DNA from: an uncultured Gemmatimonadales bacterium
GTDB lineage: Bacteria > Gemmatimonadota > Gemmatimonadetes > Longimicrobiales > RSA9
Reading direction: 5' to 3'
Assembly: GCA_963798085.1 (NCBI GenBank)
Contig: CAWCRS010000005.1
Location: 576,001-640,000 of the forward strand
DNA: 64,000 bases
In this document: positions 14,085 to 28,555 of the stretch, one piece after another
Position numbering within the stretch: position 1 is the stretch's first letter
Layout: every line of letters begins with the position of its first letter
Program-made: the position numbers and the translations under genes
Notes under the pieces: generated by a model
What the model was told of the DNA's origin: nothing
What the model saw: the letters and a program-made list of their open reading frames with translations, nothing else
The model's database searches: none

Positions 14085-14228
14085 TACGAGCTCATGCAAT
14101 GGCAGGGGCCCTGAGAAACGGCGGCCCATCCCGGCAGGACAGCGCCGGTTGGCATTCACCGGAATTCATCGCCGTCGAGGTGGTGAAGCGCCCGCGTCGG
14201 CATTGTTCAGCCGATACGGCGCGCTCAT

Positions 14229-17200
14229 CTACCTCTGCGCACCGCCCGCTCTGCCCACTGCGTGCTGCAACGAATCGAGCGAGCGGTCCTCGGCCACCCA
14301 GTAGGGTGTCGGGAAACGGTGCGGCGCAGGCCAGACTTCGTTGAGCGTGTCGCCTTCGTAGACCACGCCGTTCTTGATCACGTACCGGATCTGGTTGGTG
14401 TTGCGGATATTCTCGAGCGGATTCGCGTTGAGTACGACAAGGTCGGCCAGCTTGCCGGGCTCGATGGCTGCCCAGGTCGCGGTCGAAGCCGATGCTCTCC
14501 GCGCCGATGATCGTGGCGCAGCGCAGGACTTCCATGGGCGTCATGCCGCCGGATGCTCAGATTCCACAGCTCCCAGTGCGCGCCCAGGCCCTGCTGGTTG
14601 CCGTGCGACCCGAACCCGACGTGCCCGCCCGCGCGCAGCACGTCACGCGCGCCCGCCGCGATCGTCGGGAAGATGTAGTCCTCCTCGACGATAAGCGGGC
14701 GGCCGGCGCGCGTACGAGTCCAGCTCCACGTGCGGTGTGAAGTAGCGCGGCTTGGCATCGCCGTGCATGTCCCAGCGGCCCGCCAGTAGTCCTGCGACTC
14801 CGGCCCGCCGTAGGACGCGATCATGGCGGCGTGTACGTGATGCCGGTCTGCGCGATCAGCTGGATCAGGTCCTTGTAGATCGGCACAACAGGGAGTGTGT
14901 GCTCGAACGCGGTGAAGCCGTCCAGCGCCATGGTCACGTCCGCCTTGAGGTCGCCGGCGCCCTCGTTCGTGATATTCATGCCTTCCGCGCGCGCCGCCTG
15001 GATGAACCACTGCCGTTGGATCCGGCGAGGCTGCAGGTACTGCTTCAATGAGTTCGCACCCTGCGCCTTGTAGCGGAGCACGGCGTTGTAGCGCGTCCTC
15101 GTAGCTGCGCACGGGCACGTTCGTGGAAGTGAGCGGCGGGCCGGTCGCGTAGATGCGCGAGCCGATCATGCCGCCCGCGTCCATCAGCTCGCCCCAGGGG
15201 AACGATCCACGCAGGCCGCTGGGGTTGCGCGTGGTGGTGACGCCGTAGGCGAGGTTCGATGGCGATGCTCCATTCCTGGTCCGGGCGCGATCTCTCTGCC
15301 CGTGCGCGGGTGCGCGTGCACATCGACAAACCCGGGAATGATCGTAGCGCCATTCACGTCGATGACGCGCGCGCCCGCCGGCACCGTGGCGCGACCCACG
15401 GCGCGGATGCGGTTGTTCTCGATCAGGATGTCGCCGCGCGCGATCACCTCATCGCCACGCATCGTGATGAGCCGCGCGCCGCGCAGTACCAGCGCACCCT
15501 GCGGCGAGGCGCGCGGCACGCGCAGCGTCACGGCAGCCGAGTCGATGCCCCATTCGTCGCGGCGGTCACTTGCCATCACGCGCTCCAGCGCAGCGCGGTA
15601 GAAGCTGTTGGCAAAGCTCCAGGCAATGGTGCGCCCGCCGTCCCTCCAGGCGACGTAGTTCGCGCCCTGCGTGGTAATGCGCCGCAGCGGCACGGATGGC
15701 GACGCGAGATTCGATGGCAATGCCGTCTGCGCCCGCCGCGGTCATGGCCATCACGTACGATCGTCGCGGTCCTGGACCAGCAGGTAGCGACCGTCGGGCG
15801 AGGGGATCGCCGTCATGTTGCCGCCCGCGCCGGGCGACGTGAAGCGCGCGTGCAGTCGCCTGGCCTGACCATCCATGCGGAGCGACGCGAGCACCGCCGT
15901 CGGCGTGCCGGCGCCACCGCCTGATCCCTCGGTGAAGAAGACACGCGCCGTGTCGCCTCCCGCTGTACCGTCATGGGCGACGGCTGCCCGCAGTGATGGC
16001 GGTGCGCCTCGCCGCCGTTGGCGCTGACCCAGCGCAGCTCGCCCAGACCGGCCTCGGGCGCACCCTGGCCGGCGCGCACCGAAGCGGCGGCGTAGACCAC
16101 GCGGTCGCCTTCCGGAGACCAGACTGGCGACTGGTAGTAGCCGGCGTTCTGCGTCAGCCGCACAGGCGAGCCGCCGCTGCCGCGAACTTTCCACACGTGG
16201 CCGCCCGCGGAGTCGGACCAGCTCACGTACGCGATCCACTGGCCATCCGGCGAGAAGGCTGGCTCGTACTCGCGCCCCGGCGAGTCTGTCGCCCGGCGGG
16301 GTGTGCCCCGCAGCTCGCTGACCCAGACTTTCCCCACCGCGCTGAACGCAATGGAGCGGCCATCGGGCGACGGCTGCACACCCAGGAAGTTGCGCACCGG
16401 CATGTCGCCATCCTCGATGCGCAGGGCCGCACGGTGCCGTGTGGCCACACCCTGTTCGACGTGCGCATGGAAGGGAATCGTGCGGATCTGCCGCGTCGCC
16501 AGCTCCACGCGCTGAATGTGGCCGCCCGCCGTGAACACCACCGCCCTGCTGTCCGGCGTGAAGGCGTAGCCGGGCAGAATATCGTTGGGCGCGTACCCTT
16601 CCTGGTCGTCGCGCTGCATCTCGGCGACCAGCCAGTGATCCTCCTGCGTCTGCAGATCGCGGATGCGCAGCGCCGTCTGCGTCCACGCGCGTGGCGTATA
16701 CCAGCCAGCGCCCGTCCGGCGAGGCGATGGGGCGCAGGCCGCCGCCATAACCTGATGTCAGTGTCTGCCGTTCACCGGTCGCGCGATCGAAGCGCACCAC
16801 CTGGTACGAGTTCACGTTGGCGCTCGCGTACCCGCCGCTGTGGCTCGCGAAGTACATGTGCGCCCATCCGGCGAGAACGACGCGCCCGTGTTGGTCGTCG
16901 TGCCGGTGCCGCCTGCTCCCGGAAACAGCTCCGTTCCGTTGCCGCCGTTCCTGTGGTACAGCCACAGCGGCACGTTGCGCAGGTAGTCGACCGGGCCCGG
17001 ATACGGGCCGAACTTGCGCGCCACGAGATAGTCTCCGTCCGGCGTCCATTCCGGTGAGCTGAGCGCGAAGTCGACTTCCTTCGTCACCTGTTTGCGCCCG
17101 CTGCCGTCGAGGTTCACCAGCCACAGGTTGTCGCTGCCGCTGCGATCGCTGATGAACGCGATCGTTTTTCCGTCCGGTGAAAACCGCGGCATGCAGTCCC

Positions 17201-17583
17201 ACGGCATCCCGCTCGTGATACGCCTCGCCGCGCCACCATCAATCGGCAGCGGTATAGAGGTCGCCCATGAGGTCGAAGACGAGCGTGCGCCCATCGGGAG
17301 AGACGTCGAGCGAGATCCATGTGCCTTCATCCGTGTCGAAGGCGATCGTACGGTCCGGTCTTATCGGCAGCGCCACCGCCGTATCGCCAGGAGCGCCCTG
17401 CTGCGCTGTTGCGCGACGGGCTGGCAGCAGCAGCGCGAGCACCAGCGCTGGCCCCACGATCGCGCAGTTCGCGACGGTGTGCCCCGGTTGCCGGCGCGGG
17501 ATTGCCGGCGCCGCGGCATCGTTGCGAGTGTCCCGGGATGGCGCGTACGCAGCGCGCGCTGTGTGGTTCCTGGTTGTGCGCAT
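14229..17583 (-). pseudogene. Secreted TolB-like beta-propeller plus amidohydrolase, multiply frameshifted (pseudogene or assembly errors)
   Basis: Fragments in shifting frames: DEGTWISLDVSPDG, FSPDGKTIAFISDRSG, IIPGFVDVHAH, FGSHGNQQGLGAHWE, IEPGKLADLVVLNANPLENIRNT; roughly ten frame changes. Confidence 0.85.
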
Positions 17584-17814: not shown

Positions 17815-18894
17815 ATGCACATCGCACAACACCGCTGCGTCGTAATCGGAACCATGGTGATCGCGCTGGCGGCGCTCCGTTCGGGCGGCGCCGCGCAGCA
17901 GACCGCGCTGCCCTGCTCCGAGCTGGCCCAGATTCTCGGCGGCTCGCCGGCAACGTCCGGCAATGTGTGCAAGGTCAACCTGCCACGCGTGGATCTGCAG
18001 GTTACACTGCTGGGTGCCACACTGCCGCCGGGCGCGGGCCTCACTTCATGGGCAGCGTTTCTACCCGCCGCGGACGGCGCCCTCGTCATGGGCGACCTGG
18101 CTCTCACGACAACCGAGCTGTCCAGCGTGCTGCGCGGACTGCGCGACGGCGGCTTCAATGTCACCGCCGTGCACCGCCACATGCTGGATGAGACGCCACC
18201 CATGAGCTTCGCCCACTACATGGGTCATGGTGACGCGCGCGACCTCGCGCACAAGCTGCGCCTCGCGCTCGGTGCGCCCACCCCGCCCTCGCCGTTTCCC
18301 GGCAGCATTGGGGAGCGCGGCGTGGTCAGCGGTGTGCCGTGCGGCGCGATTCAGAAGCTGCTCGGTGCCGGTGACAGTGGCACGGACGCGGGCGCCGGCT
18401 TCTGCAAGATCACGCTTCCGCGCAGCGACCTTGCCGTGACCCTGAACGGAACGGCGCTGCCGCCGGCCATGGGTGTTGCCAGCTGGTTCGCGTTTCAGGA
18501 GGTGCCCGATCGCAGCGCCGTGGTGCTCACCGGTGACATGGCGCTCACGGAAGCGCAGGTCAGCAATGCACTGGGCGCAATGGTGCAGGCGGGCGTCGAC
18601 GTCGTGGCGCTGCACAATCACATGACTGGCGAACAGCCGCGCATCGTGTTCTTCCACTTCCAGGCGAGAGGCAACGCCGCCACCCTGGCGCAGGCTGTGC
18701 ACGATGCGCTGCAGGCGTCGCGCCAGGAGCGCCCGCCCGGGAAGGCACCGGCTGCGCGCTTGCTTCAGTTGAGGCGTTCGGGGAATCCCGATTCCCGGAT
18801 GCGGAACCGGTTCCAGGCCTTGCCGTTGCGCACCAGCAGCAGGGCTTCCTGCACGAAGGGGAACGTATTGACGTCGATCAGGGCGCCGTTGTAA
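17815..18894 (+). CDS. Secreted tandem DUF1259 (LppY/LpqO-like) protein
   Basis: GGAGG RBS; signal peptide; duplicated domain SWAAF..MGD..VTAVHRHM and SWFAF..TGD..VVALHNHM. Confidence 0.8.
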   Translation: MHIAQHRCVVIGTMVIALAALRSGGAAQQTALPCSELAQILGGSPATSGNVCKVNLPRVDLQVTLLGATLPPGAGLTSWAAFLPAADGALVMGDLALTTTELSSVLRGLRDGGFNVTAVHRHMLDETPPMSFAHYMGHGDARDLAHKLRLALGAPTPPSPFPGSIGERGVVSGVPCGAIQKLLGAGDSGTDAGAGFCKITLPRSDLAVTLNGTALPPAMGVASWFAFQEVPDRSAVVLTGDMALTEAQVSNALGAMVQAGVDVVALHNHMTGEQPRIVFFHFQARGNAATLAQAVHDALQASRQERPPGKAPAARLLQLRRSGNPDSRMRNRFQALPLRTSSRASCTKGNVLTSIRAPL

Positions 18895-19973
18895 CGCGGC
18901 GTTATGGTGCTGAGCGGCGTGTGGCCAATGACGAGCAGGCGGGCATCGAAGCGCTGGAGGACCGCGCTCAGTGCATCCCTGAGCGAATCACCCTGCGCGT
19001 AGTCGCGGTACCAGAAGACGCTGCGCGGACCCCAGAAGAAGTCGTTGCGACGCTCGACCGCGGCGGAGTCCAGCGGCACGGCGTAGGTCGAGTCCGTCCA
19101 GCGGTAGAACAGGTCTTCGCGGGTGTACGCGGCAAGCGTGTCCTCGTACGAATCCAGCGTCCATGCCGCGTAGTCCGTCGATACACCGCCGTGCGCGAAC
19201 AGCACGTCGCCAATGCGCAGCAGCGCGGGCCGCGTGATCAGCCAGCGCCCGAGCACGGAAAGGCGGGGATCGTACAACCGGTCGTAGCCAATGTGGTGGC
19301 GGCGCGCGATCTCTTTCTCCTTGGGCGATACATAGCGCAGGTCGCCCAGCATGATCATGATCTCGTGGTTGCCGAGCACCATGTGCAACCGCCCGCCCGC
19401 GCTCTCCGCCTGCGCCTCGAGCTGGTAGAGCAGCCAGAGCGCGCGCGTCGCGTCGGCGCCCCGATCGAACACGTCGCCCACCACCACCAGCTGCCGCCGG
19501 CCGCCCGTCCATTCCAGGCTGTCACCCACCAGGCCTGCATTGCGCAGCACGCGCACGAGCCGGTCGAACTCGCCATGGATGTCGCTGACGACGTAGATCG
19601 AATCCGCCGCGGGCCATGACACGCGGGGCTTCCCCGCGTCCTGGCGGATGGTCGTCCACCAGCCTCCCGCCGAATCCGGTGCCTCGCCGTAATGCAGTGT
19701 CAGCGGTCGCGCACCGGGATCCCGGAAGACCACCGTGTGCTCGCTGTCCGGCGCCGTCGTCGTGTGCAGGCGGACCCGCCCACCCGTGCTCACATCCAGA
19801 AACCCCGCGACCGGCCGGTTCGTGATCCAGCTCACTGCCAGCGAGTCACCCTGGCGCCGCACCCACAGCCCGTACTCCCCATCAAGCCGGCCCACTGCGT
19901 CCTGTTCCGCCGCCGGCCCTCCTGCCGCCAGACAGAGCGCAACCGCTGCCACATAACCCGCGATTATCTTCAC
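18765..19973 (-). CDS. Secreted metallophosphoesterase, Shewanella-like PPP phosphatase
   Basis: Signal peptide; N-terminal beta domain; DIHG, GDVFDRG, GNHE, HGG, GHT motifs. Confidence 0.88.
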   Translation of the reverse strand: MKIIAGYVAAVALCLAAGGPAAEQDAVGRLDGEYGLWVRRQGDSLAVSWITNRPVAGFLDVSTGGRVRLHTTTAPDSEHTVVFRDPGARPLTLHYGEAPDSAGGWWTTIRQDAGKPRVSWPAADSIYVVSDIHGEFDRLVRVLRNAGLVGDSLEWTGGRRQLVVVGDVFDRGADATRALWLLYQLEAQAESAGGRLHMVLGNHEIMIMLGDLRYVSPKEKEIARRHHIGYDRLYDPRLSVLGRWLITRPALLRIGDVLFAHGGVSTDYAAWTLDSYEDTLAAYTREDLFYRWTDSTYAVPLDSAAVERRNDFFWGPRSVFWYRDYAQGDSLRDALSAVLQRFDARLLVIGHTPLSTITPRYNGALIDVNTFPFVQEALLLVRNGKAWNRFRIRESGFPERLN

Positions 19974-20135: not shown

Positions 20136-21083
20136 CTAGAAAACAGCGATCTTGCCCTTGTCGATATCTGCCAGCAGGCTCTGCAGCCTCGATTCGACGC
20201 CCCGGATTTCGCGGGTCGTGAGGCCGAACTGCACCACCTTTCCCGAACGTCGTACTCCGCGGCCTTCGCCCAGGTTCGCGCCGCGCGCCACGGGCGCCAG
20301 CTGATCGCCCTGAATCTCGAACTGCACGAGGACGCCCAGCCCGTCACGCAGCTGCTCCGGCGTGATGGCGCGCAGTCGCGCCACCGTGGCGCGTGGCAGG
20401 CGGGGCACGCGAATGTTGCGCCATTCGTAGCCCCGGTCGCTGGCCTGGCTCTCGAATGCCAGACCGTTGTCCACGGAGAAGACACGCGGCAGTGTCGCAC
20501 TCTGGGAGAGGAGGAAATTGCCGACATTCGAGTCGTTGTGGTGAATCAGGTAGGTAAGGATGTTGAAATCGCCGAGGTGACGCGCGTAGACCGTATCGCG
20601 TTGGGCCCGGTTCCTGTCGTAGAAGTTGTCCGGCGAAACCTGCAGCAACCAGTACTGCAGCACCACCACAACGGACTGCGCGCCGTCGAACGTGGCTTCG
20701 GCGGCAGCATCGTATTGTTGCAGCCACGTCAGGGGCACTGCGCGCACGACCGTCGGCGGAACGGCGTAGTCCCCGGGATCCAGGAACAGGCGCTGTATCT
20801 CGTACGCGGCCAGCTCGTAGCGCGGCTCGTTGTTGAACGCGGTCCCGCCCACCGGCGCGCGCGCCAGCTTCGCCACCAAAACGCTGCTGTCGGCGAACTG
20901 CAGCGTGATGCGCTGCGTGCGATCGCCCTGGGCCCGTGAGCCGCGCACATCCAGAATGTTCAACGGAGCCGAACGCAGGCGTGCCTCGATGCTGTCGACT
21001 GCGATCAGGTAGTTGGCATCCTGTGCCCGGCCGTTGGCGGGCAGCACCGACAACAGAGCCGCGGCCAGCAGTGTGCGCTTCAT
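20136..21083 (-). CDS. Secreted atypical kinase, PI3K/PI4K-II/Fam20-like fold
   Basis: Signal peptide MKRTLLAAALLSVLPANGRA; VAK, YELAAYE, VPPTV, LQYW, LIHHNDSNVGN, VDNGLAF; ATGA overlap with the upstream histidine kinase. Confidence 0.72.
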   Translation of the reverse strand: MKRTLLAAALLSVLPANGRAQDANYLIAVDSIEARLRSAPLNILDVRGSRAQGDRTQRITLQFADSSVLVAKLARAPVGGTAFNNEPRYELAAYEIQRLFLDPGDYAVPPTVVRAVPLTWLQQYDAAAEATFDGAQSVVVVLQYWLLQVSPDNFYDRNRAQRDTVYARHLGDFNILTYLIHHNDSNVGNFLLSQSATLPRVFSVDNGLAFESQASDRGYEWRNIRVPRLPRATVARLRAITPEQLRDGLGVLVQFEIQGDQLAPVARGANLGEGRGVRRSGKVVQFGLTTREIRGVESRLQSLLADIDKGKIAVF

Positions 21084-21875
21084 GATGCGCCTCCGGTTTC
21101 CAGTTTGAGCGGCAGGAACACCGTGAACGTCGATCCCTGTCCCTGCACGCTGCGTACGCTGATGCGCCCGCAATGCCGGTCGATCACCTGGCGCACGATC
21201 AGCAGCCCCAGACCCATGCCCACGCGTTCGCCCTTGGTGGAGAACCCCGGCTCGAAGATGCTGGCCAGGTCCTTGTCCGCGATGCCGTTGCCCGAGTCTT
21301 CGATCTCGACCTGCACCCCGCCGGGCGCCGCCTGCGTGCGCACGGTGATGCGTCCCCTGCCCTGGATGGCCTGCGCCGCGTTCACCAGCAGGTTCATGAA
21401 AACCTGCCCGACCTGCTGCGGATAACACGCGATCAGCGGCACATCGCCGTACTCACGCACGACCTCGACGCGGTCGCGCAGTTCGTGATTCAGGATGGTG
21501 AGCGCACCATCGATGGAAGCGCGCACATCAATGTGATCCAGTTGCGCTCGATCCGGCCGGCCGAACGTGCGCAGACTCGTCACCAGCTGCACCATGCGCT
21601 CGACCGCCAGGTGATTCACCTTCATGATGCCATTGAGCGCGGACACAATACGGCGCACTTCGTCCAGCTCGGATGGCTCCACTACATCATCGGCGAGAAT
21701 CGCGTGCAGGCGGGAGAGCGCGCGGCGCAGCACGTCATCGATTGCTGTGCAGCGCGCCCAGCGGCGTGTTCAGCTCGTGCGCGATGCCGGCAACGAGCGC
21801 GCCCAGCGTGGCCGTCTTGGCCGCATTGACCTGTTCGGCCAGGGCGTCGGCGTTCTCCTCGCCCGGCGCGGGCAT
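21080..21875 (-). CDS. Sensor-less cytoplasmic histidine kinase (NtrB-like), one frameshift near 21738
   Basis: H-box LVAGIAHELNTPLG in one frame; QVFMNLLVNA, DSGNGI, FEPGFSTK, GMGLGL in the next; junction AATCGATGACGTG becomes N-H-D-V if one G is removed. Confidence 0.85.
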
Positions 21876-22354
21876 CAGAGAAAGGCCCGGATCAGACGGC
21901 GGCGCATCTCCAGCAGTTCGACATTGGCGGACTCGAGCGCGCTGAGACGGGCATCCAGCTCGTTCACGAGAGAGGACCGCTCCACGCCATTGCGGATGAC
22001 CAGGCTGAGCCGGTCGTTGTCCCACGGCTTCTCGAGGTAGTAGTAGAGGCCCACCTCGTTGATGGCGCGGATCGCGTTCTCCACGTCCGCATAGCCGGTC
22101 AGCAGCACGCGCGAGGTGTGGGGCCGTATCTCCCTCGCCTTGCGCAGGAATTCGATGCCGTCCATCTCCGGCATCATGAAGTCGGAGACGATGACGTCGA
22201 TGCGTTCGCTGCCCAGCTGTTCGAGCGCCTTGTGCGGCGAATTGCAGGAAATGACGCGGTACGCTGTCTCCAGCTCGAGAAAGCTGCGCAGCGCCGTGAG
22301 CACCATTTCCTCGTCGTCGACGAGGAGAATCACGGGCGTGTGTGCATCAGCCAT
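21875..22354 (-). CDS. Receiver-domain response regulator with C-terminal coiled coil
   Basis: LLVDDE, VSDFMMPEMDG, LLTGYAD, YLEKPW; no DNA-binding domain. Confidence 0.92.
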   Translation of the reverse strand: MADAHTPVILLVDDEEMVLTALRSFLELETAYRVISCNSPHKALEQLGSERIDVIVSDFMMPEMDGIEFLRKAREIRPHTSRVLLTGYADVENAIRAINEVGLYYYLEKPWDNDRLSLVIRNGVERSSLVNELDARLSALESANVELLEMRRRLIRAFL

Positions 22355-22371: not shown

Positions 22372-25300
22372 TCAGGCGACCAGCGACCGGATGCGCCGCG
22401 CCAGCCCCTGCAGCAGCCCGAGCGCAAGTTCCGGGTGATCGGATACCAGGTCATTGAACTCCTCGCGCCGGATGCGCAGCACATGGGTGTTCTCGGTGGC
22501 GCGCGCTTCCACGAGGCTGGGCGATTCATCGATCAGCGCCCAGGTGCCGAACGCGCCGCCCTCATTCACCACCATCTCTCCACCCACTCCGCGCAATTCC
22601 ACGGCGCCGCGGGTCACGACGTACAATGCCTCCGTCGGCTCGCCCTCGCGGATCAGCACGGTGCCGCGCTCCACAGCCAGGTCTTCCGCAATGCTGGCGA
22701 GCAGGGCGAGATGGGCGCTGCGCGCGTCCTTCAGCAGATCGACACGCTGGAAGAGGAAGACGGTTTCGATGAGATCCATGCGCTGCGCTTGTGTGCCCTG
22801 ACGTTCGGGGACCCGCTCGAGCTTGCGCCGCGCCGCGGCGGCACAGGCCGCGACCCACGGATCGCTGTCGCTCTCGAGACGGCGCAGCGCCTCGGCCGCA
22901 TGGCCGCGGGACGGGCCACCGGCCTCGGGCTGCAGAATAGGCTGCAGTTCCCGGAAAAGCGAGTAACCGACGGTCTGCTCCAGCCACTCGATTGCGTTTG
23001 CGCGGGCAATCGTGCTCCCGCTCAGCGCGAGATAACAGCGGTATATGTCATCCGGCGGAAAGATCAGACCCAGGCAGCGAAAACCGCCTTCACACCGCTC
23101 GCGCCAGGCATCGGCCAGCGCGCCGCGCGTCAGACTCACGATGCCGCCATCTTCGCCCACGCTTTGCAGGCTGGCGCGCGCCGTGGCGTAGCGATCCGCC
23201 ACCGCCACTTCCCGCCGCACCACTTCCAGCGCCAGCTGCGTGTCGAACACGAGATCGCTGTGCTGCGCGCGCAGCTTGCTCAATGCCTTGATGATTCTGT
23301 AGTCGAGCAGCTGTTCGGTTTCGGGCGCGAGCACCGCGCGCAACAGAGTGTTTACAGTCTCCGCACAGGGGATCCTGGCGAGCACGGAGGGCAGTGCCCG
23401 GCGCACCAGTGGATGGGCGCGCGTGTCCAGCAGCTGCGCCGCGAGCGGCGCGATGGCCGAGGGTCCCAGCGCGGCCAGCGCGGTGCGCGCCGCGGCGCGC
23501 GTGTCCGGTCGCGCCAGCGCCGCGATGAGGCGGGGCTGCGAGCGCTGCAGCCCCATCCGGCCCGCGGCCAGCAGCGCGGTCGATGCGACGGCGGGTTCCG
23601 GATCATCCAGCAGCTGCTCGACCGCGCGCTCGGCCTCGGCATCACCGGGCAGCGCGCTCGCCGCCAGTGCCAGCTCGGCGCGCTCCGCCGCGTCAGCCGG
23701 GCGCGCCGTTGCCAGGCGCAACGGATAGCGCCGGCGGATCGCGTCCCTGTCGTACCCGGGCACATCGCCCCGCGCAATGCACGACAGCACCGCCGTGCGC
23801 ACAGCGGCCTGCTCCGAGCTCAGCAGCTCCTCGAGCGCCTTGCCGTTGTCCGATGCCGCGAGAAACGCACGCACCGCCGCTTCCCGCACGGCGGGCGATA
23901 CATCGAGCAGGCGGGCGCGAATGCGCGCGCTCTCCACCGCGTGCGGAAAGCGCTCCAGCAGCACCAGTGCGCGCGCGCGAATCTCAGCGGACGGATGCTG
24001 CAGCAGCCGGTTCAGCTCCAGCGCCAGTCCCTCCTCATCACGCAGCGGTGATTCACTGATGAGGTCGAGTGCGAAGGCAACCTGCAGCGGGTCGTCTGAA
24101 CCGAGCGCCCGCCGCACCAGCGGCCACGTAGTGCCGTCCGCCAGCGAGCCGTACAGACCGCGCACGCTCGCGAAGCGGCCCTCGATCGAGCGCGCCAGCA
24201 CGCGCACGTACTGGCGGCGTACGCGCATGCCCAGCGCCAGCCACACCAGCGACAGCAGCATGCCCACGAGCGCGATGCGCCGCTCGCCCATTACCTGCAG
24301 CAGCAGGAAGATGAAACCGGCGGCCGCGGCCTTGCCCAGACCTTCCTCGAGCGCGACGTCGATCCATGTCTTCGCCCTCAGCTTCAATTCCTCCGGCACC
24401 GGCAGGTACAGGATCTCGCGACCGGCGCGCTCCACGGAATAACGCAGTGTTGTCTCGGTGCCCTTGGCGAATACGCCGGCCGCCAGCGTACCGGAGAACG
24501 CGAGCGCGCCGTTGGCCACGAACATGAACGCGGGCAGCATCAGCACGGCGATGCCCACGCCGTAACGGCGCAGCAGCGGCTGCAGCACGGCGAGCATCAG
24601 CAGGGGCAGCCACTGTGTCGCGAAGTTGAACTTGCCCTGGAACGCGCTCACTGCGTCGCGCGTAACGAACGTTTCCTTGGTGAGTGCGTTGAACTGGTAG
24701 TCGACGATCTGCTTCACCAGGATCGTGACCAGCACCATCAGTGCGACGAGCCGGATGTGCGGATCACGCGCCACCTCGCGCAGGCCGCCCGCGGACAGAG
24801 CGCCCTTCGACCTGCGCCGCACAGGCCTCTGCTCCGGGCCGGCGGTGAGCGGCAGCGCCAGGCCGAACAGCACGATGAAGCCGGCCGCGACCAGCAGCAG
24901 GTTGGGCGTGCCCAGTGCGGGCGCGAGAAAGCCGGTCACAGCGCCGCCCGCCGCCGCACCGATGCTGCCGCCGGCAATGAGCATCGGGTACGCACGCTTC
25001 GCGCTGCGCGCGTCCACCATGTACTGCGCGGCCAGAAAGAACTGCGAGACGACAGCCGCCGTGAAGAGATCGTTCCAGCCGTAGAAGATCAGCCCGAACG
25101 CCTTGCTTCCCGGATGGTAGAGTGCGCGGAAGAGCAGCAGGTTGAGCGCGAAGAAGAGCGCCATGCCCGTCACCAGACGGCGCCACGGCACACGCTCGAT
25201 CATGCGCGTGTACGGTGCGACGAACAGTGCCACCGCCGCGCTCACCAGATAGACGCGGTAGAAGTTGGCGCCGCCCAGGCCATCCAGTGCAATGGCGTTC

Positions 25301-25491
25301 TTGATGGGGCGCAGCACACCCACCGCGCACTGCACGAGGAAGAACAACGCCGCCATGGCCAGGAAGCGGCTCGTGGCTGTGCGCCCGGACTGCAGGCGGC
25401 GGGCGTCTCGCGTGTCGCTCAACGTTGCGTGAGAGGGTCGGGTCGGGATTGGTGTGGCCGGAAGTGTGACGCCAATCGCGGGCGGGGTCAA
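22372..25491 (-). CDS. Npt1/Npt2 (NTT/TLC, MFS-fold) nucleotide-transporter-like protein fused to HEAT repeats and a cNMP-binding domain
   Basis: About 12 TMs with LRPIKNA, AKRAYPMLIAGGSIG, IVDYQF, LRYSVERAGREILYLPVPEELKLRAKTWID; HEAT-like helices; C-terminal LIREGEP...FGTWAL domain; start uncertain (TTG). Confidence 0.8.
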   Translation of the reverse strand: MTPPAIGVTLPATPIPTRPSHATLSDTRDARRLQSGRTATSRFLAMAALFFLVQCAVGVLRPIKNAIALDGLGGANFYRVYLVSAAVALFVAPYTRMIERVPWRRLVTGMALFFALNLLLFRALYHPGSKAFGLIFYGWNDLFTAAVVSQFFLAAQYMVDARSAKRAYPMLIAGGSIGAAAGGAVTGFLAPALGTPNLLLVAAGFIVLFGLALPLTAGPEQRPVRRRSKGALSAGGLREVARDPHIRLVALMVLVTILVKQIVDYQFNALTKETFVTRDAVSAFQGKFNFATQWLPLLMLAVLQPLLRRYGVGIAVLMLPAFMFVANGALAFSGTLAAGVFAKGTETTLRYSVERAGREILYLPVPEELKLRAKTWIDVALEEGLGKAAAAGFIFLLLQVMGERRIALVGMLLSLVWLALGMRVRRQYVRVLARSIEGRFASVRGLYGSLADGTTWPLVRRALGSDDPLQVAFALDLISESPLRDEEGLALELNRLLQHPSAEIRARALVLLERFPHAVESARIRARLLDVSPAVREAAVRAFLAASDNGKALEELLSSEQAAVRTAVLSCIARGDVPGYDRDAIRRRYPLRLATARPADAAERAELALAASALPGDAEAERAVEQLLDDPEPAVASTALLAAGRMGLQRSQPRLIAALARPDTRAAARTALAALGPSAIAPLAAQLLDTRAHPLVRRALPSVLARIPCAETVNTLLRAVLAPETEQLLDYRIIKALSKLRAQHSDLVFDTQLALEVVRREVAVADRYATARASLQSVGEDGGIVSLTRGALADAWRERCEGGFRCLGLIFPPDDIYRCYLALSGSTIARANAIEWLEQTVGYSLFRELQPILQPEAGGPSRGHAAEALRRLESDSDPWVAACAAAARRKLERVPERQGTQAQRMDLIETVFLFQRVDLLKDARSAHLALLASIAEDLAVERGTVLIREGEPTEALYVVTRGAVELRGVGGEMVVNEGGAFGTWALIDESPSLVEARATENTHVLRIRREEFNDLVSDHPELALGLLQGLARRIRSLVA

Positions 25492-25500
25492 TACCCCGGC

Positions 25501-26181
25501 TCATGCCTGAAAGCGGTACCCCACTTTCCAGACGGTGAGAAAATGCTCGGGGTGCGCGGGGTCGCGCTCCAGTTTCTTGCGCAGCTCCTTGATGTGCGAG
25601 TCGACGGTGCGCGTCATCACCAGGCCGCGATGCCCCCAGACATCGCGCAGCAATGTCGCGCGTGACGTTACCGCCCCTTCCTTGCGGATCAGCGCCAGCA
25701 TGAGGTCGTAGGCGCGGGGTGTCAGCGATACGCTCGAGCCTCGCACGCGCACGGCGCGCGACCCGGTTTCCACCTCGACATCGCCGAAGCGGATCACCTC
25801 GCGCGAGCTGCCCGGCGTGGTGCGCCGCCGCAGCAGCGACTTCACCCGTTCCAGCAGCTCCAGCAGGTGGAACGGCTTGGTCACGTACTGGTCCGCGTCC
25901 AGACGGAAGCCGCGCACCTTGTCCTGTTCCTCGCCCAGCGCCGTGAGCATCAGAACGGGCACGACAACGCCTTCCGCCCGCACCTGACGCAGCACCTGAA
26001 AGCCGTCCATGCGCGGCAGCATCGCATCCAGAACAATCAGGTCAGGCGACGCCGCGCGCGCCATTTCCAGTCCCGCGACGCCGTCCTCGGCGTGCAGCAC
26101 TTCGTAGCCTTCCAGCTCGAAATTGTAGCGCAGCCCGGCGGCGAGGTCGGCGTTGTCCTCCACCAGCAGGATGCGCGTCAT
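25501..26181 (-). CDS. OmpR/PhoB-family response regulator
   Basis: LLVEDN, LDAMLP, TKPF; winged helix TRTVDSHIKELRKKLE, TVWKVGYRF. Confidence 0.95.
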   Translation of the reverse strand: MTRILLVEDNADLAAGLRYNFELEGYEVLHAEDGVAGLEMARAASPDLIVLDAMLPRMDGFQVLRQVRAEGVVVPVLMLTALGEEQDKVRGFRLDADQYVTKPFHLLELLERVKSLLRRRTTPGSSREVIRFGDVEVETGSRAVRVRGSSVSLTPRAYDLMLALIRKEGAVTSRATLLRDVWGHRGLVMTRTVDSHIKELRKKLERDPAHPEHFLTVWKVGYRFQA

Positions 26182-27929
26182 GCCTGCGCATCCGGCGCGT
26201 GTGACGCCGCGCGCTCCCGACCCGCGCCCGGGAAGCGCAGCACAAAGCGCGCGCCGTGCGTGCTGGTCGCGAGGCTCGCCGAGCCGCCGTGTCTCGCCAT
26301 GATGTCGCTCACGATGGAGAGGCCAATGCCGCTGCCCCCCACGCTGCGCGCCGCGTCGCTCGAGCCGCGCTCGAACGGCTTCCAGATGACATCGCGATCC
26401 GCAGCGGCAATGCCCGGACCCTCATCCGCGACGCTCAGCTGCAGCACGTCGCCATCCAGCACCCCCTCGACGCGCACAGTCTGCCCGCTGGGCCCGTACT
26501 TCACCGCGTTGTCGAGCAGATTCAGCAGTGCCACGCGGAACGCATCGGTCATCAGCGGCACACGGATCGACGCATCGATGTCCATGACCACCGAAGCGCG
26601 CCGCGAGCGCGCCAGCGGCTCGAACGCCGCCAGCGTCTGACGCACCTCCTCCGCCACCGCTGTGGTGCGCAGCGGCGCCACACGCTCCTGCCCGACCGAT
26701 GCGAAGCGCAGCACATTCTCCACGAGATGGTTGAGACGGGTGGCCTCGCGGTCCAGATGATCGAGCGACCAGGCACGCTCCTTGTCGGTGGACAGGCGGC
26801 CCAGACGCAGCGTGTCCAGATACAGGCGGATCTGCGAAAGCGGCGTGCGCAGCTCGTGCGACACCGCAGCCACGAAATCGGCACGTGTGCGCGTCAGCGC
26901 GGCCGCCCGCCGCAGCTGCTGCACCGCCACCACCGAGAGCGTCGCCGCCACCAGCAGCAGGCCGATCAGCAGCGGCAGCCGTGAGCGCGGCAGTCCGCCA
27001 ATCACCAGCATGTTCGCAACACGCGGTTTGATGGCGGCGCGCACCGTGAAGCCGCCCCAGGCATCGGGTACGTGGTCGTCACGATACGCCTCGATCCGAT
27101 CGGCGTCCGGATCGGAGCGGTACACCAGCTGGCCACGACGGTCCAGCACGCGCACGGCAATGAGATCGCGATTCAGATGATTGCGCGTGAGCGCGGGCGG
27201 CAGCAGGTCTTCCTGATCGATGATGCTGCCGAACAGCTCCATGACCGTGCGCGGCGCCAGCTCCACCGCGTACACGATCGTGTCGCCTGCGCTCCTCGCC
27301 ATGGGGCGGTACGCGAAGACACGCGGTCGACCCTGGAACTCGCCCACCACGATGCCGTACTGCCAGTCGACCGCGAACTGATGGCGCACCGCAGCGCTCA
27401 GCGTGTCGATCACCCAGCGGCGCTCCGCCGCGCTGTAGGGCGCTACATCGGGTATCTCTTCGCTCTGCCAGTGCCGGATCACCGCGGCCGTGTCCACGAT
27501 AACACCGTGCTCGCCGCGGTAGAGGTTGGGTACTACCGCGATCGTGTCCGCGCCCAGCGTGTAGCCAAGGAAATACCTGGCGGGATACTCCATGCGGTGG
27601 CAGAAACAACCGGCGGAATCCCAGGGCAGCATGTGCGCCAGCACGATCGCAGGAGGCACGTCGCTGCCTTCGTGCAGGCCGCGGCCGTGATTCACCGGGC
27701 CGAGCACACTGGCCGCCGTCGCAAACAGCGCGTCTTTCAGGTGCTGGCGAAAACTCCACGCCGCAAACGACGTGTAGTCGCGCAGCGTTTCCTCGGCCTG
27801 CCGGTGATTCTGGCGCACCGCCTCCTGCGCCTGGAACGCCGCGACCAGCACGATCCCGATACTGGCCAGCAGCAGCACCAGCGGCAGGGTCAGCCGGAAA
27901 CGCTCCGCCCCCTTCGGCTTCAGCTTCAT
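26178..27929 (-). CDS. Membrane sensor histidine kinase
   Basis: Two TMs flanking a large periplasmic domain; SHELRTPL, NLLDNAVKY, DEGPGI, GSGIGL. Confidence 0.95.
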   Translation of the reverse strand: MKLKPKGAERFRLTLPLVLLLASIGIVLVAAFQAQEAVRQNHRQAEETLRDYTSFAAWSFRQHLKDALFATAASVLGPVNHGRGLHEGSDVPPAIVLAHMLPWDSAGCFCHRMEYPARYFLGYTLGADTIAVVPNLYRGEHGVIVDTAAVIRHWQSEEIPDVAPYSAAERRWVIDTLSAAVRHQFAVDWQYGIVVGEFQGRPRVFAYRPMARSAGDTIVYAVELAPRTVMELFGSIIDQEDLLPPALTRNHLNRDLIAVRVLDRRGQLVYRSDPDADRIEAYRDDHVPDAWGGFTVRAAIKPRVANMLVIGGLPRSRLPLLIGLLLVAATLSVVAVQQLRRAAALTRTRADFVAAVSHELRTPLSQIRLYLDTLRLGRLSTDKERAWSLDHLDREATRLNHLVENVLRFASVGQERVAPLRTTAVAEEVRQTLAAFEPLARSRRASVVMDIDASIRVPLMTDAFRVALLNLLDNAVKYGPSGQTVRVEGVLDGDVLQLSVADEGPGIAAADRDVIWKPFERGSSDAARSVGGSGIGLSIVSDIMARHGGSASLATSTHGARFVLRFPGAGRERAASHAPDAQA

Positions 27930-27936
27930 GTCAGGC

Positions 27937-28555
27937 TCAACAACCCCTGCGTTGCGCTCCCTCCACACGGGCACGGGCCGCGGCTTCGTCCACGGATTTC
28001 ATGGCAGGCGACGATGTTCGCCCCGTGTTGCCTTCCGCTGACGCCGTGCGTGGCATGCCGCCGAACCAGCGGCTGAGCGCCGCAATTTCGCGAAATGCCG
28101 CACTGTCCGCCGCACTCGCGCGACTCGGCAATACCGGCTCCATGATGACATTCGATCCAACCGGCCAGGCCACCGCGCAGCAGCAGCGTGTTTCGTATAC
28201 CGCGGGCCAGCAGCATCGCCTGCACGCTCGCGGCTTCTGCTTCACCATCGGAATACACCACAATGCGCTGCTGCTCTCCGAACCGGGCGTCGGGCAGGCG
28301 GTCCGGCGGCACGTTCTCCGCCATGGCGATGTGGTACTTCGAGAAGGACACGGAGTCGCGCACATCGATCAGACGCAGGCTCTCCCGGCCCGCCCGCAGC
28401 CAGCGCGCCAGCTCGATCGCAGCCACCGTCGCGCCAGGCGCTCCAGCCCGTGCTCCTGTGCCGATCGTGTCTGCCAGCAACGCACCCGTCGCCAGCAGCG
28501 CCGCAAGTACCGCCAGCACCTGCACAGCGCGGATGCGGCGCGGGCCTGCACTCAT
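27937..28555 (-). CDS. Membrane-anchored rhodanese-like protein, one frameshift near 28152
   Basis: LIDVR, YHIAMA, VVYS, LRGGLAGW in one frame; continues as VIMEPVLP...SRWFGGMPR...RRGC in another; catalytic position is Ser. Confidence 0.7.

Follow-up and report, generated by a model that had tools for sequence, protein, structure and literature searches.

The locus described here raises a simple question: where would a kinase that is predicted to leave the cytoplasm obtain its ATP? The gene lies on the minus strand at 20136..21083 of the window (the whole 64,000-nucleotide stretch analysed, from an uncultured Gemmatimonadales bacterium) and encodes a protein of 315 amino acid residues (P0001) with a Fam20/PI4KII fold and a predicted signal peptide. 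To our knowledge the periplasm is generally taken to be without an ATP supply, and an exported kinase therefore needs explanation. In the window the gene belongs to a run of five, which encode, in order, a carrier with NTT, HEAT and cNMP-binding domains, a receiver protein, a histidine kinase, the kinase itself and a metallophosphatase with a signal-like leader.

Start site, homologues and leader

A mechanical list of open reading frames begins the kinase at a GTG (21428), which the sequence-only reading had set aside in favour of an ATG at 21083. Codon-position G+C and homologue lengths agree on the ATG, and the longer form was ruled out. In the kinase frame, the extension to 21428 has G+C values of 0.87/0.67/0.45 at the three codon positions; read in the histidine-kinase frame the same DNA gives 0.67/0.45/0.86, and the kinase gene proper gives 0.70/0.44/0.82. 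Because these values fit the histidine-kinase frame, the extension is assigned to that upstream gene. The established ATG shares the tetranucleotide ATGA with the TGA stop of the upstream gene, and a GGAGG ribosome-binding-like site (21090..21094, minus strand) is found 6 nt on its 5′ side. The 315-residue form is already present in a public protein collection, the start being hidden by the mechanical track only. A scan for promoters and terminators gave no signal above chance.

Of 8000 proteins scored in a homologue search, 743 were recovered; the top 120 constitute the close-homologue set. These range from 305 to 358 residues; every named protein among them is "hypothetical", the named sources are mostly Longimicrobiales/Gemmatimonadota, and no cultured organism with the kinase was seen. 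A wider-family set of 95 diverse relatives (30-56% identity) was also assembled.

The predicted Sec signal peptide comprises residues 1-20 (21024..21083, minus strand), with predicted cleavage at GRA / QD, and coincides with the low-pLDDT N-terminus of the structural model. A leader had been claimed from the sequence of this one protein, and it proves to be a property of the family: with a custom script (not SignalP) requiring a basic n-region, a hydrophobic core and small residues at -3 and -1, 106 of the 120 close homologues passed, compared with 9 of 2400 internal control stretches. Position -1 is Ala in 108 and position +1 is Gln in 118 of the 120 leaders. Only two of the 120 mature chains rise above the hydropathy mark, which indicates a kinase without a membrane anchor. 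Two cysteines on neighbouring strands form a pair that is complete in 61 members of the wider-family set, absent from 24 and reduced to a single cysteine in 10, and a loose pattern finds a lipobox-like motif in 47 of 66 distant kinase members. The disulfide-like pair and the lipobox-like motifs are compatible with an exported protein, and export of the kinase to the periplasm is predicted.

Fold and active site

The order of motifs had suggested a kinase of the PI3K/PI4K-II/Fam20/CtkA kind, an assignment on which fold searches and conserved catalytic residues now agree. The AlphaFold2 model (pLDDT 92.8) has a bilobed kinase fold, and the top Foldseek ranks are Fam20C/Fam20A and PI4KII-alpha. 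The structural comparison proposed in that reading was carried out with VIA-align and returned matches to PI4KII, Fam20C, CtkA and HipA at Z scores of 15.8, 16.3, 11.8 and 9.8, respectively; the remaining values were 16.7 for Hydra Fam20, 11.8 for actin-fragmin kinase and 10.8 for CotH. By sequence the relationship is more remote. A search of solved structures with P0001 and the close-homologue alignment A1 gave no significant match, and the same search with alignment A2 gave weak matches only, to Vps34, Tel1 and ATM.

The motif series described earlier was found in its entirety: VAK (K72), ELAAY (E90), VPPTV, LQYW, DSNVGN (D184, N186 and N189), DNG (D205) and EIxxxxxR (E292 and R299). From the alignments, Lys72 (20868..20870) is the equivalent of the beta3 lysine, and the model places it on strand 68-75; Glu90 (20814..20816) lies on helix 87-97, the alphaC equivalent. 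In alignment, the catalytic loop HNDSNVGN (H182-N189; 20517..20540) is the counterpart of the Vps34/Tel1 DRHxxN loop, and the DNG metal-binding motif occupies D205-G207 (20463..20471), all of these features being on the minus strand. In the model, the active-site residues occupy the strands, helix and loops expected for them. The profile alignment that matches DSNVGN to the catalytic loop of Vps34/Tel1, and DNG to their DFG-equivalent, is weak. Conservation is high among the 95 diverse relatives, which retain K72 in 94, E90 in 91, D184 in 94, N189 in 91, D205 in 94 and N206 in 89. In the close homologues R50, D54 and R88 are invariant, and R55 is present in 118 of 120.

One feature counts against an active periplasmic kinase. 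Seventeen of the 120 close homologues carry Gln at the position of Lys72, where no residue other than Lys or Gln occurs, and on a FastTree phylogeny the distribution requires 10 Lys-Gln changes, nine of them forced by well-supported branches. All 17 Gln72 proteins keep E90, D184, N186, N189, D205 and N206. In WNK kinases, a P-loop arginine stands in for the lysine. By analogy, one reading of the Gln72 proteins is that a P-loop arginine may replace the lysine; another is that they may have a binding role instead.

Relationship to known kinase families

The sole Pfam match of P0001 is PI3_PI4_kinase (PF00454) at 19.1 bits, below the cut-off of 27.1; 39 of the 95 wider-family members match this model at E ≤ 0.1. 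The Fam20 domain PF06702 did not match P0001 and matched one of the 95 relatives at E 0.057. No NCBIfam model matched P0001, including that of the SCO1664 family (TIGR03843), which matched 37 of the 95 relatives weakly at E ≤ 0.1 (best 9.1e-6). Among bacterial family models that of SCO1664 is the nearest; its members are actinobacterial, cytoplasmic proteins, and our literature search found no function for the family. Judged by the models of these families, the kinase falls outside Fam20, PF00454 and SCO1664.

The closest folds are those of Fam20 (the protein kinase Fam20C, the xylose kinases Fam20B and Hydra Fam20, and the pseudokinase Fam20A), at Z 16.0-16.7 and rmsd 3.6-3.9 over 246-254 aligned residues. 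According to PMC7948968, Fam20 kinases possess a signal peptide and act outside the cytosol, and Hydra Fam20 is a xylose kinase. The window kinase shares the predicted signal peptide; unlike Fam20 it is bacterial, only 15-17% identical, has the loop DSNxGN and has a carrier and a phosphatase of its own encoded alongside. It resembles the type II PI 4-kinases and PI3-PI4 kinases in fold (Z 15.8 for PI4KII-alpha) and in the alignment of its catalytic loop and DxG to Vps34/Tel1, and differs from PI4KII in having a signal-like leader and no membrane anchor. CotH, cited in PMC12189002 as a known bacterial Fam20C-like kinase, shares the kinase superfold with CtkA and HipA (Z 10.8, 11.8 and 9.8 for CotH, CtkA and HipA) at 7-11% identity; their roles are in the spore coat, as a host effector and as a toxin, respectively, and unlike the window kinase none has an NTT/phosphatase module. 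On the strength of the predicted structure, the kinase taken alone is a new, putatively exported family of the known Fam20/PI4KII fold.

Partner genes in the window

Downstream, at 18765..19973 (minus strand), lies a Shewanella-like (Shelph) PPP metallophosphatase of 402 residues with a signal-like leader and an N-terminal beta domain. Its closest solved relative is the cold-active protein-tyrosine phosphatase of Shewanella (E 1.7e-64, TM 0.71), and its match to ApaH is weak (E 5e-9). The PPP metal motifs given in PMC535813 (GDxHG, GDxxDRG and GNHE) are present in 41-42 of 42 sequences. The bacterial-PPP motif (I/L/V)D(S/T)G, which reads IDVN in the window protein and AVDL across the family, retains its Asp and lacks the S/T-G; the Shewanella enzyme has AVDSS. 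The same source states that the substrate specificity of bacterial PPPs is not predictable. The catalytic domain is that of the Shelphs (PMC535813; PDB 1v73, 2z72), from which the present phosphatase differs in its pairing or fusion with a kinase.

Upstream of the kinase are a histidine kinase without a sensor domain (21080..21875) and a response regulator of 159 residues, consisting of a receiver and a short tail (21875..22354), both on the minus strand. By crude hydropathy, two or more membrane segments were assigned to 7 of 36 relatives of the histidine kinase, and none to 20. The histidine-kinase gene has a frame break at 21740. The base at this point is absent from one near-identical contig of depth 2, and the break is therefore probably an assembly error. 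Elsewhere in the window, 14092-17330 (minus strand) appears by eye to hold a single long beta-propeller/amidohydrolase gene broken by frame shifts into several pieces, a hint of more assembly errors. An OmpR regulator and membrane sensor kinase at 25501-27974 were placed outside the module because relatives do not keep them next to the kinase.

The carrier (22372..25491, minus strand; 1039 residues) joins an NTT/TLC nucleotide-carrier domain to HEAT repeats and a cNMP-binding domain. The first of these matches PF03219 (TLC; 52.4 versus 21 bits) and AtNTT1 (9j3j; E 6.2e-19). Residues K155, E245, E385 and K527 of AtNTT1 were placed on the carrier alignment by one consistent offset, which is our own mapping, and E385 is presumably to be counted among the charged transport residues. 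According to PMC3306366, K155 and K527 take part in binding the nucleotide, and E245 in its translocation. At the equivalent positions the window carrier has R, D, D and K. The last three are near-constant in the carrier family (D, D and K, each in 40 of 41 members); the K155 equivalent is variable (K in 17, Q in 16 and R in 6 of 41), which counts against a reading as an ATP/ADP exchanger. Among 13 divergent NTTs adjacent to kinases, the K527 lysine is kept in 3, an acid at E245 in 3 and an acid at E385 in 10; this widespread loss of known ATP-binding residues counts against a general role in ATP transport. The same genome holds two further single-domain NTT genes with no kinase nearby (G000:C7:797022-798377 and G000:C3 near 382100-383435).

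Carriers of the same NTT-HEAT-cNBD architecture are described as uncharacterised by Major, Embley and Williams (2017; PMC5381601). In the main text of that paper the characterised NTTs are uptake systems of parasites and plastids, outward use does not figure, and uptake or thylakoid transfer is proposed for the NTT-HEAT-cNBD proteins; a linked exported kinase, as found here, is not mentioned there.

Conservation and co-occurrence of the module

Conservation of the gene run was tallied at 80 genome loci, which have an NTT in 44 cases, the phosphatase in 46, either in 66, both in 24 and all five genes in 21. Neither partner is present at 14 of the 80, a count against the module, several of these loci being cut short or near contig ends. 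The association with the carrier is closest among 61 relatives. The kinase occurs in 16 of them (including the unpublished G016, counted once), and in 16 of 16 a carrier orthologue of at least 48% identity stands beside it on the same contig. Only one of the 45 kinase-less relatives has such an orthologue, in a genome that is 62% complete and also carries a phosphatase fragment. The phosphatase orthologue is less constant, being found in 11 of the 16 kinase genomes; its absence from the other five counts against the module reading, and four of these five carry the kinase in two or three copies.

In a phylum sample of 121 genomes, the kinase and a close carrier occur, adjacent, in the same five, three of which represent one genus; a close phosphatase is present in four of the five, and eight further genomes have distant NTTs and no kinase. 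For 36 loci (35 genomes) with no or a weak carrier match, an NTT-family gene is nevertheless present in 35 of 35 genomes, and a close orthologue in 16, against a background of 18 of 45 kinase-less relatives with an NTT-family gene. These samples overlap, and related genomes are not independent.

Several genomes have the NTT-receiver-histidine kinase block at a distance from the kinase, and G317 has the kinase without an NTT or phosphatase within 20 kb; both observations count against a carrier-fed cycle. At loci L081, L082, L095 and L088, where this block lies apart from the kinase, the flanking genes encode a SixA-like histidine phosphatase and a second histidine kinase or a RibD_C protein. 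Beyond the five module genes, no candidate substrate gene recurs in the neighbour clusters of near or distant loci. Covariation between K72Q of the kinase and the K/Q position of the carrier was not seen at the 40 loci with both genes, a comparison without power because only one of them has a Gln kinase. A predicted complex of NTT domain, mature kinase, ATP and Mg scored 0.00 and counts neither for nor against.

Distant branch and fusions

The association recurs outside the near branch. When 121 genomes of a second bacterial order were searched with the kinase alone, six weak matches were obtained besides the seed genome, and in this blind test all six were phosphatase-kinase fusions with signal-like leaders and a touching NTT gene. 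A Myxococcota sample of 201 genomes gave four matches, too few to tally: two beside an NTT, one without partners in 20 kb, and one weak kinase without a signal-like leader or NTT. A search for the distant branch yielded 80 metagenome loci, near-duplicates and some near-branch members included, with an NTT in 15 (13 of the 40 loci of at least 4 kb) and a Shelph in 9; the low NTT share counts against a carrier-fed cycle. A quick IQ-TREE analysis of 90 NTT domains divides the kinase-adjacent carriers among at least four groups, each with its own support and one of them long-branched.

The fusions found comprise six of kinase with phosphatase, one of NTT with kinase and two of kinase with a class A beta-lactamase-like domain, each represented by one sequence. 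Loci L199-L204, L077 and L097, with protein P0274, represent a sister family in which a Shelph is joined to a kinase whose loop reads NxDRNxxN, the fusion gene standing tail to tail with that of an NTT; the C-terminal domain of the NTTs at L077 and L097 is Ig-like. One branch (L167, L191 and L195; P0224 and P0275) links kinase and NTT to the class A beta-lactamase-like protein, twice as a kinase fusion; this beta-lactamase-like protein is possibly a sensor or a substrate. At L106:2262-5386, an Omp85 barrel and a lipoprotein of 546 residues are divergent from an NTT-HEAT, a cNBD and a distant kinase.

In the distant branch, the phosphatase slot beside the kinase is taken by unrelated proteins, namely Cys-based phosphatases without a clear leader, a lipin-type HAD phosphatase and another metallophosphoesterase, and at one locus a PI-phospholipase C is found (Cys-based, lipin-type HAD and phospholipase C genes at L124:7758-8378, L135:7868-8362, L119:8074-9273 and L197:5845-7062). 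The exchange of unrelated phosphatase folds beside the kinase is compatible with a kinase/phosphatase pair.

A proposed periplasmic cycle and its alternatives

From the family-wide leader, the fold with its conserved residues, the gene run, the carrier co-occurrence and the fusions, we infer a cycle of protein phosphorylation in the periplasm. Sec would export the kinase and the phosphatase; the carrier would pass cytoplasmic ATP outward in exchange for periplasmic ADP; the kinase would use this ATP to phosphorylate envelope proteins, from which the Shelph phosphatase would remove the phosphate; and the HEAT-cNMP tail of the carrier, with the receiver/histidine-kinase pair, would gate the cycle. 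As a complete account this remains tentative, and we place it a little below an even chance.

The same carrier-fed cycle might have a different acceptor, namely a lipid, a glycan or a small molecule of the inositol type, with PI4KII and Fam20B as precedents. The best fold match, Hydra Fam20, is a xylose kinase (PMC7948968), with Fam20C and PI4KII-alpha within 1 Z unit; the sole Pfam match is PI3_PI4_kinase; and the distant-branch neighbours include the lipin-type HAD phosphatase, the PI-specific phospholipase C and the Cys-based phosphatases. Against these points, the usual near-branch partner is a Shelph, and the solved structure related to it is that of a protein-tyrosine phosphatase, no glycosyltransferase or lipid-synthesis genes were recognised by eye in the recurring neighbour clusters, and the kinase has no membrane anchor. 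We regard such an acceptor as unlikely.

A second alternative, which we find improbable to a similar degree, is that nucleotides from outside the cell are taken up or sensed by the module: the carrier would import, the kinase fold would bind or turn over the incoming environmental ATP, the phosphatase would trim nucleotides, and the receiver and histidine kinase would report the flux. Known NTTs import (PMC5381601), many of the partner NTTs are without the canonical ATP residues, the phosphatase has a weak score against ApaH, and the repeated change of Lys72 to Gln, with no third residue, would suit a binding role. However, all 17 Gln proteins retain the six other active-site residues and Lys is kept in 94 of 95 wider-family members, the ApaH match falls far below the Shelph match, and the interchange of unrelated phosphatase folds beside the kinase fits a kinase/phosphatase pair.

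The separation of the two halves in several genomes, and the lack of a nearby carrier in G317, might mean that an exported kinase and phosphatase share only their regulation with the NTT-receiver-histidine kinase block, drawing ATP from lysed cells or using another phosphate donor. Since the carriers next to the kinase differ in clade and architecture, some occurring without a receiver or histidine kinase, and one NTT-kinase fusion is known, we think this quite improbable. That the kinase is a CtkA-like effector secreted onto eukaryotic or prey cells is very improbable indeed, the fold match to CtkA (Z 11.8) standing against a Sec-like leader, recurring neighbours among which no secretion-system gene was recognised, and a cognate carrier and phosphatase that would be superfluous.

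Returning to the periplasmic cycle, we incline slightly towards its general form, in which free-living bacteria of several phyla would use an outward NTT to supply ATP, a Fam20-like kinase to write and a Shelph to erase, under cyclic-nucleotide and two-component control. No description of the kinase family or of the module was found in the literature searched, most subscription journals lying outside the scope of that search. It is the module as a whole, and not the kinase alone with its known fold, that would be the new part.

The module offers an explanation of where an exported kinase would obtain its ATP, and this can be tested with three proteins. The kinase itself adds a bacterial family whose predicted fold is near those of Fam20 and PI4KII. 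If the cycle is real, it would provide a function for the uncharacterised NTT-HEAT-cNBD carriers of PMC5381601 and would represent a bacterial counterpart of secretory-pathway phosphorylation.
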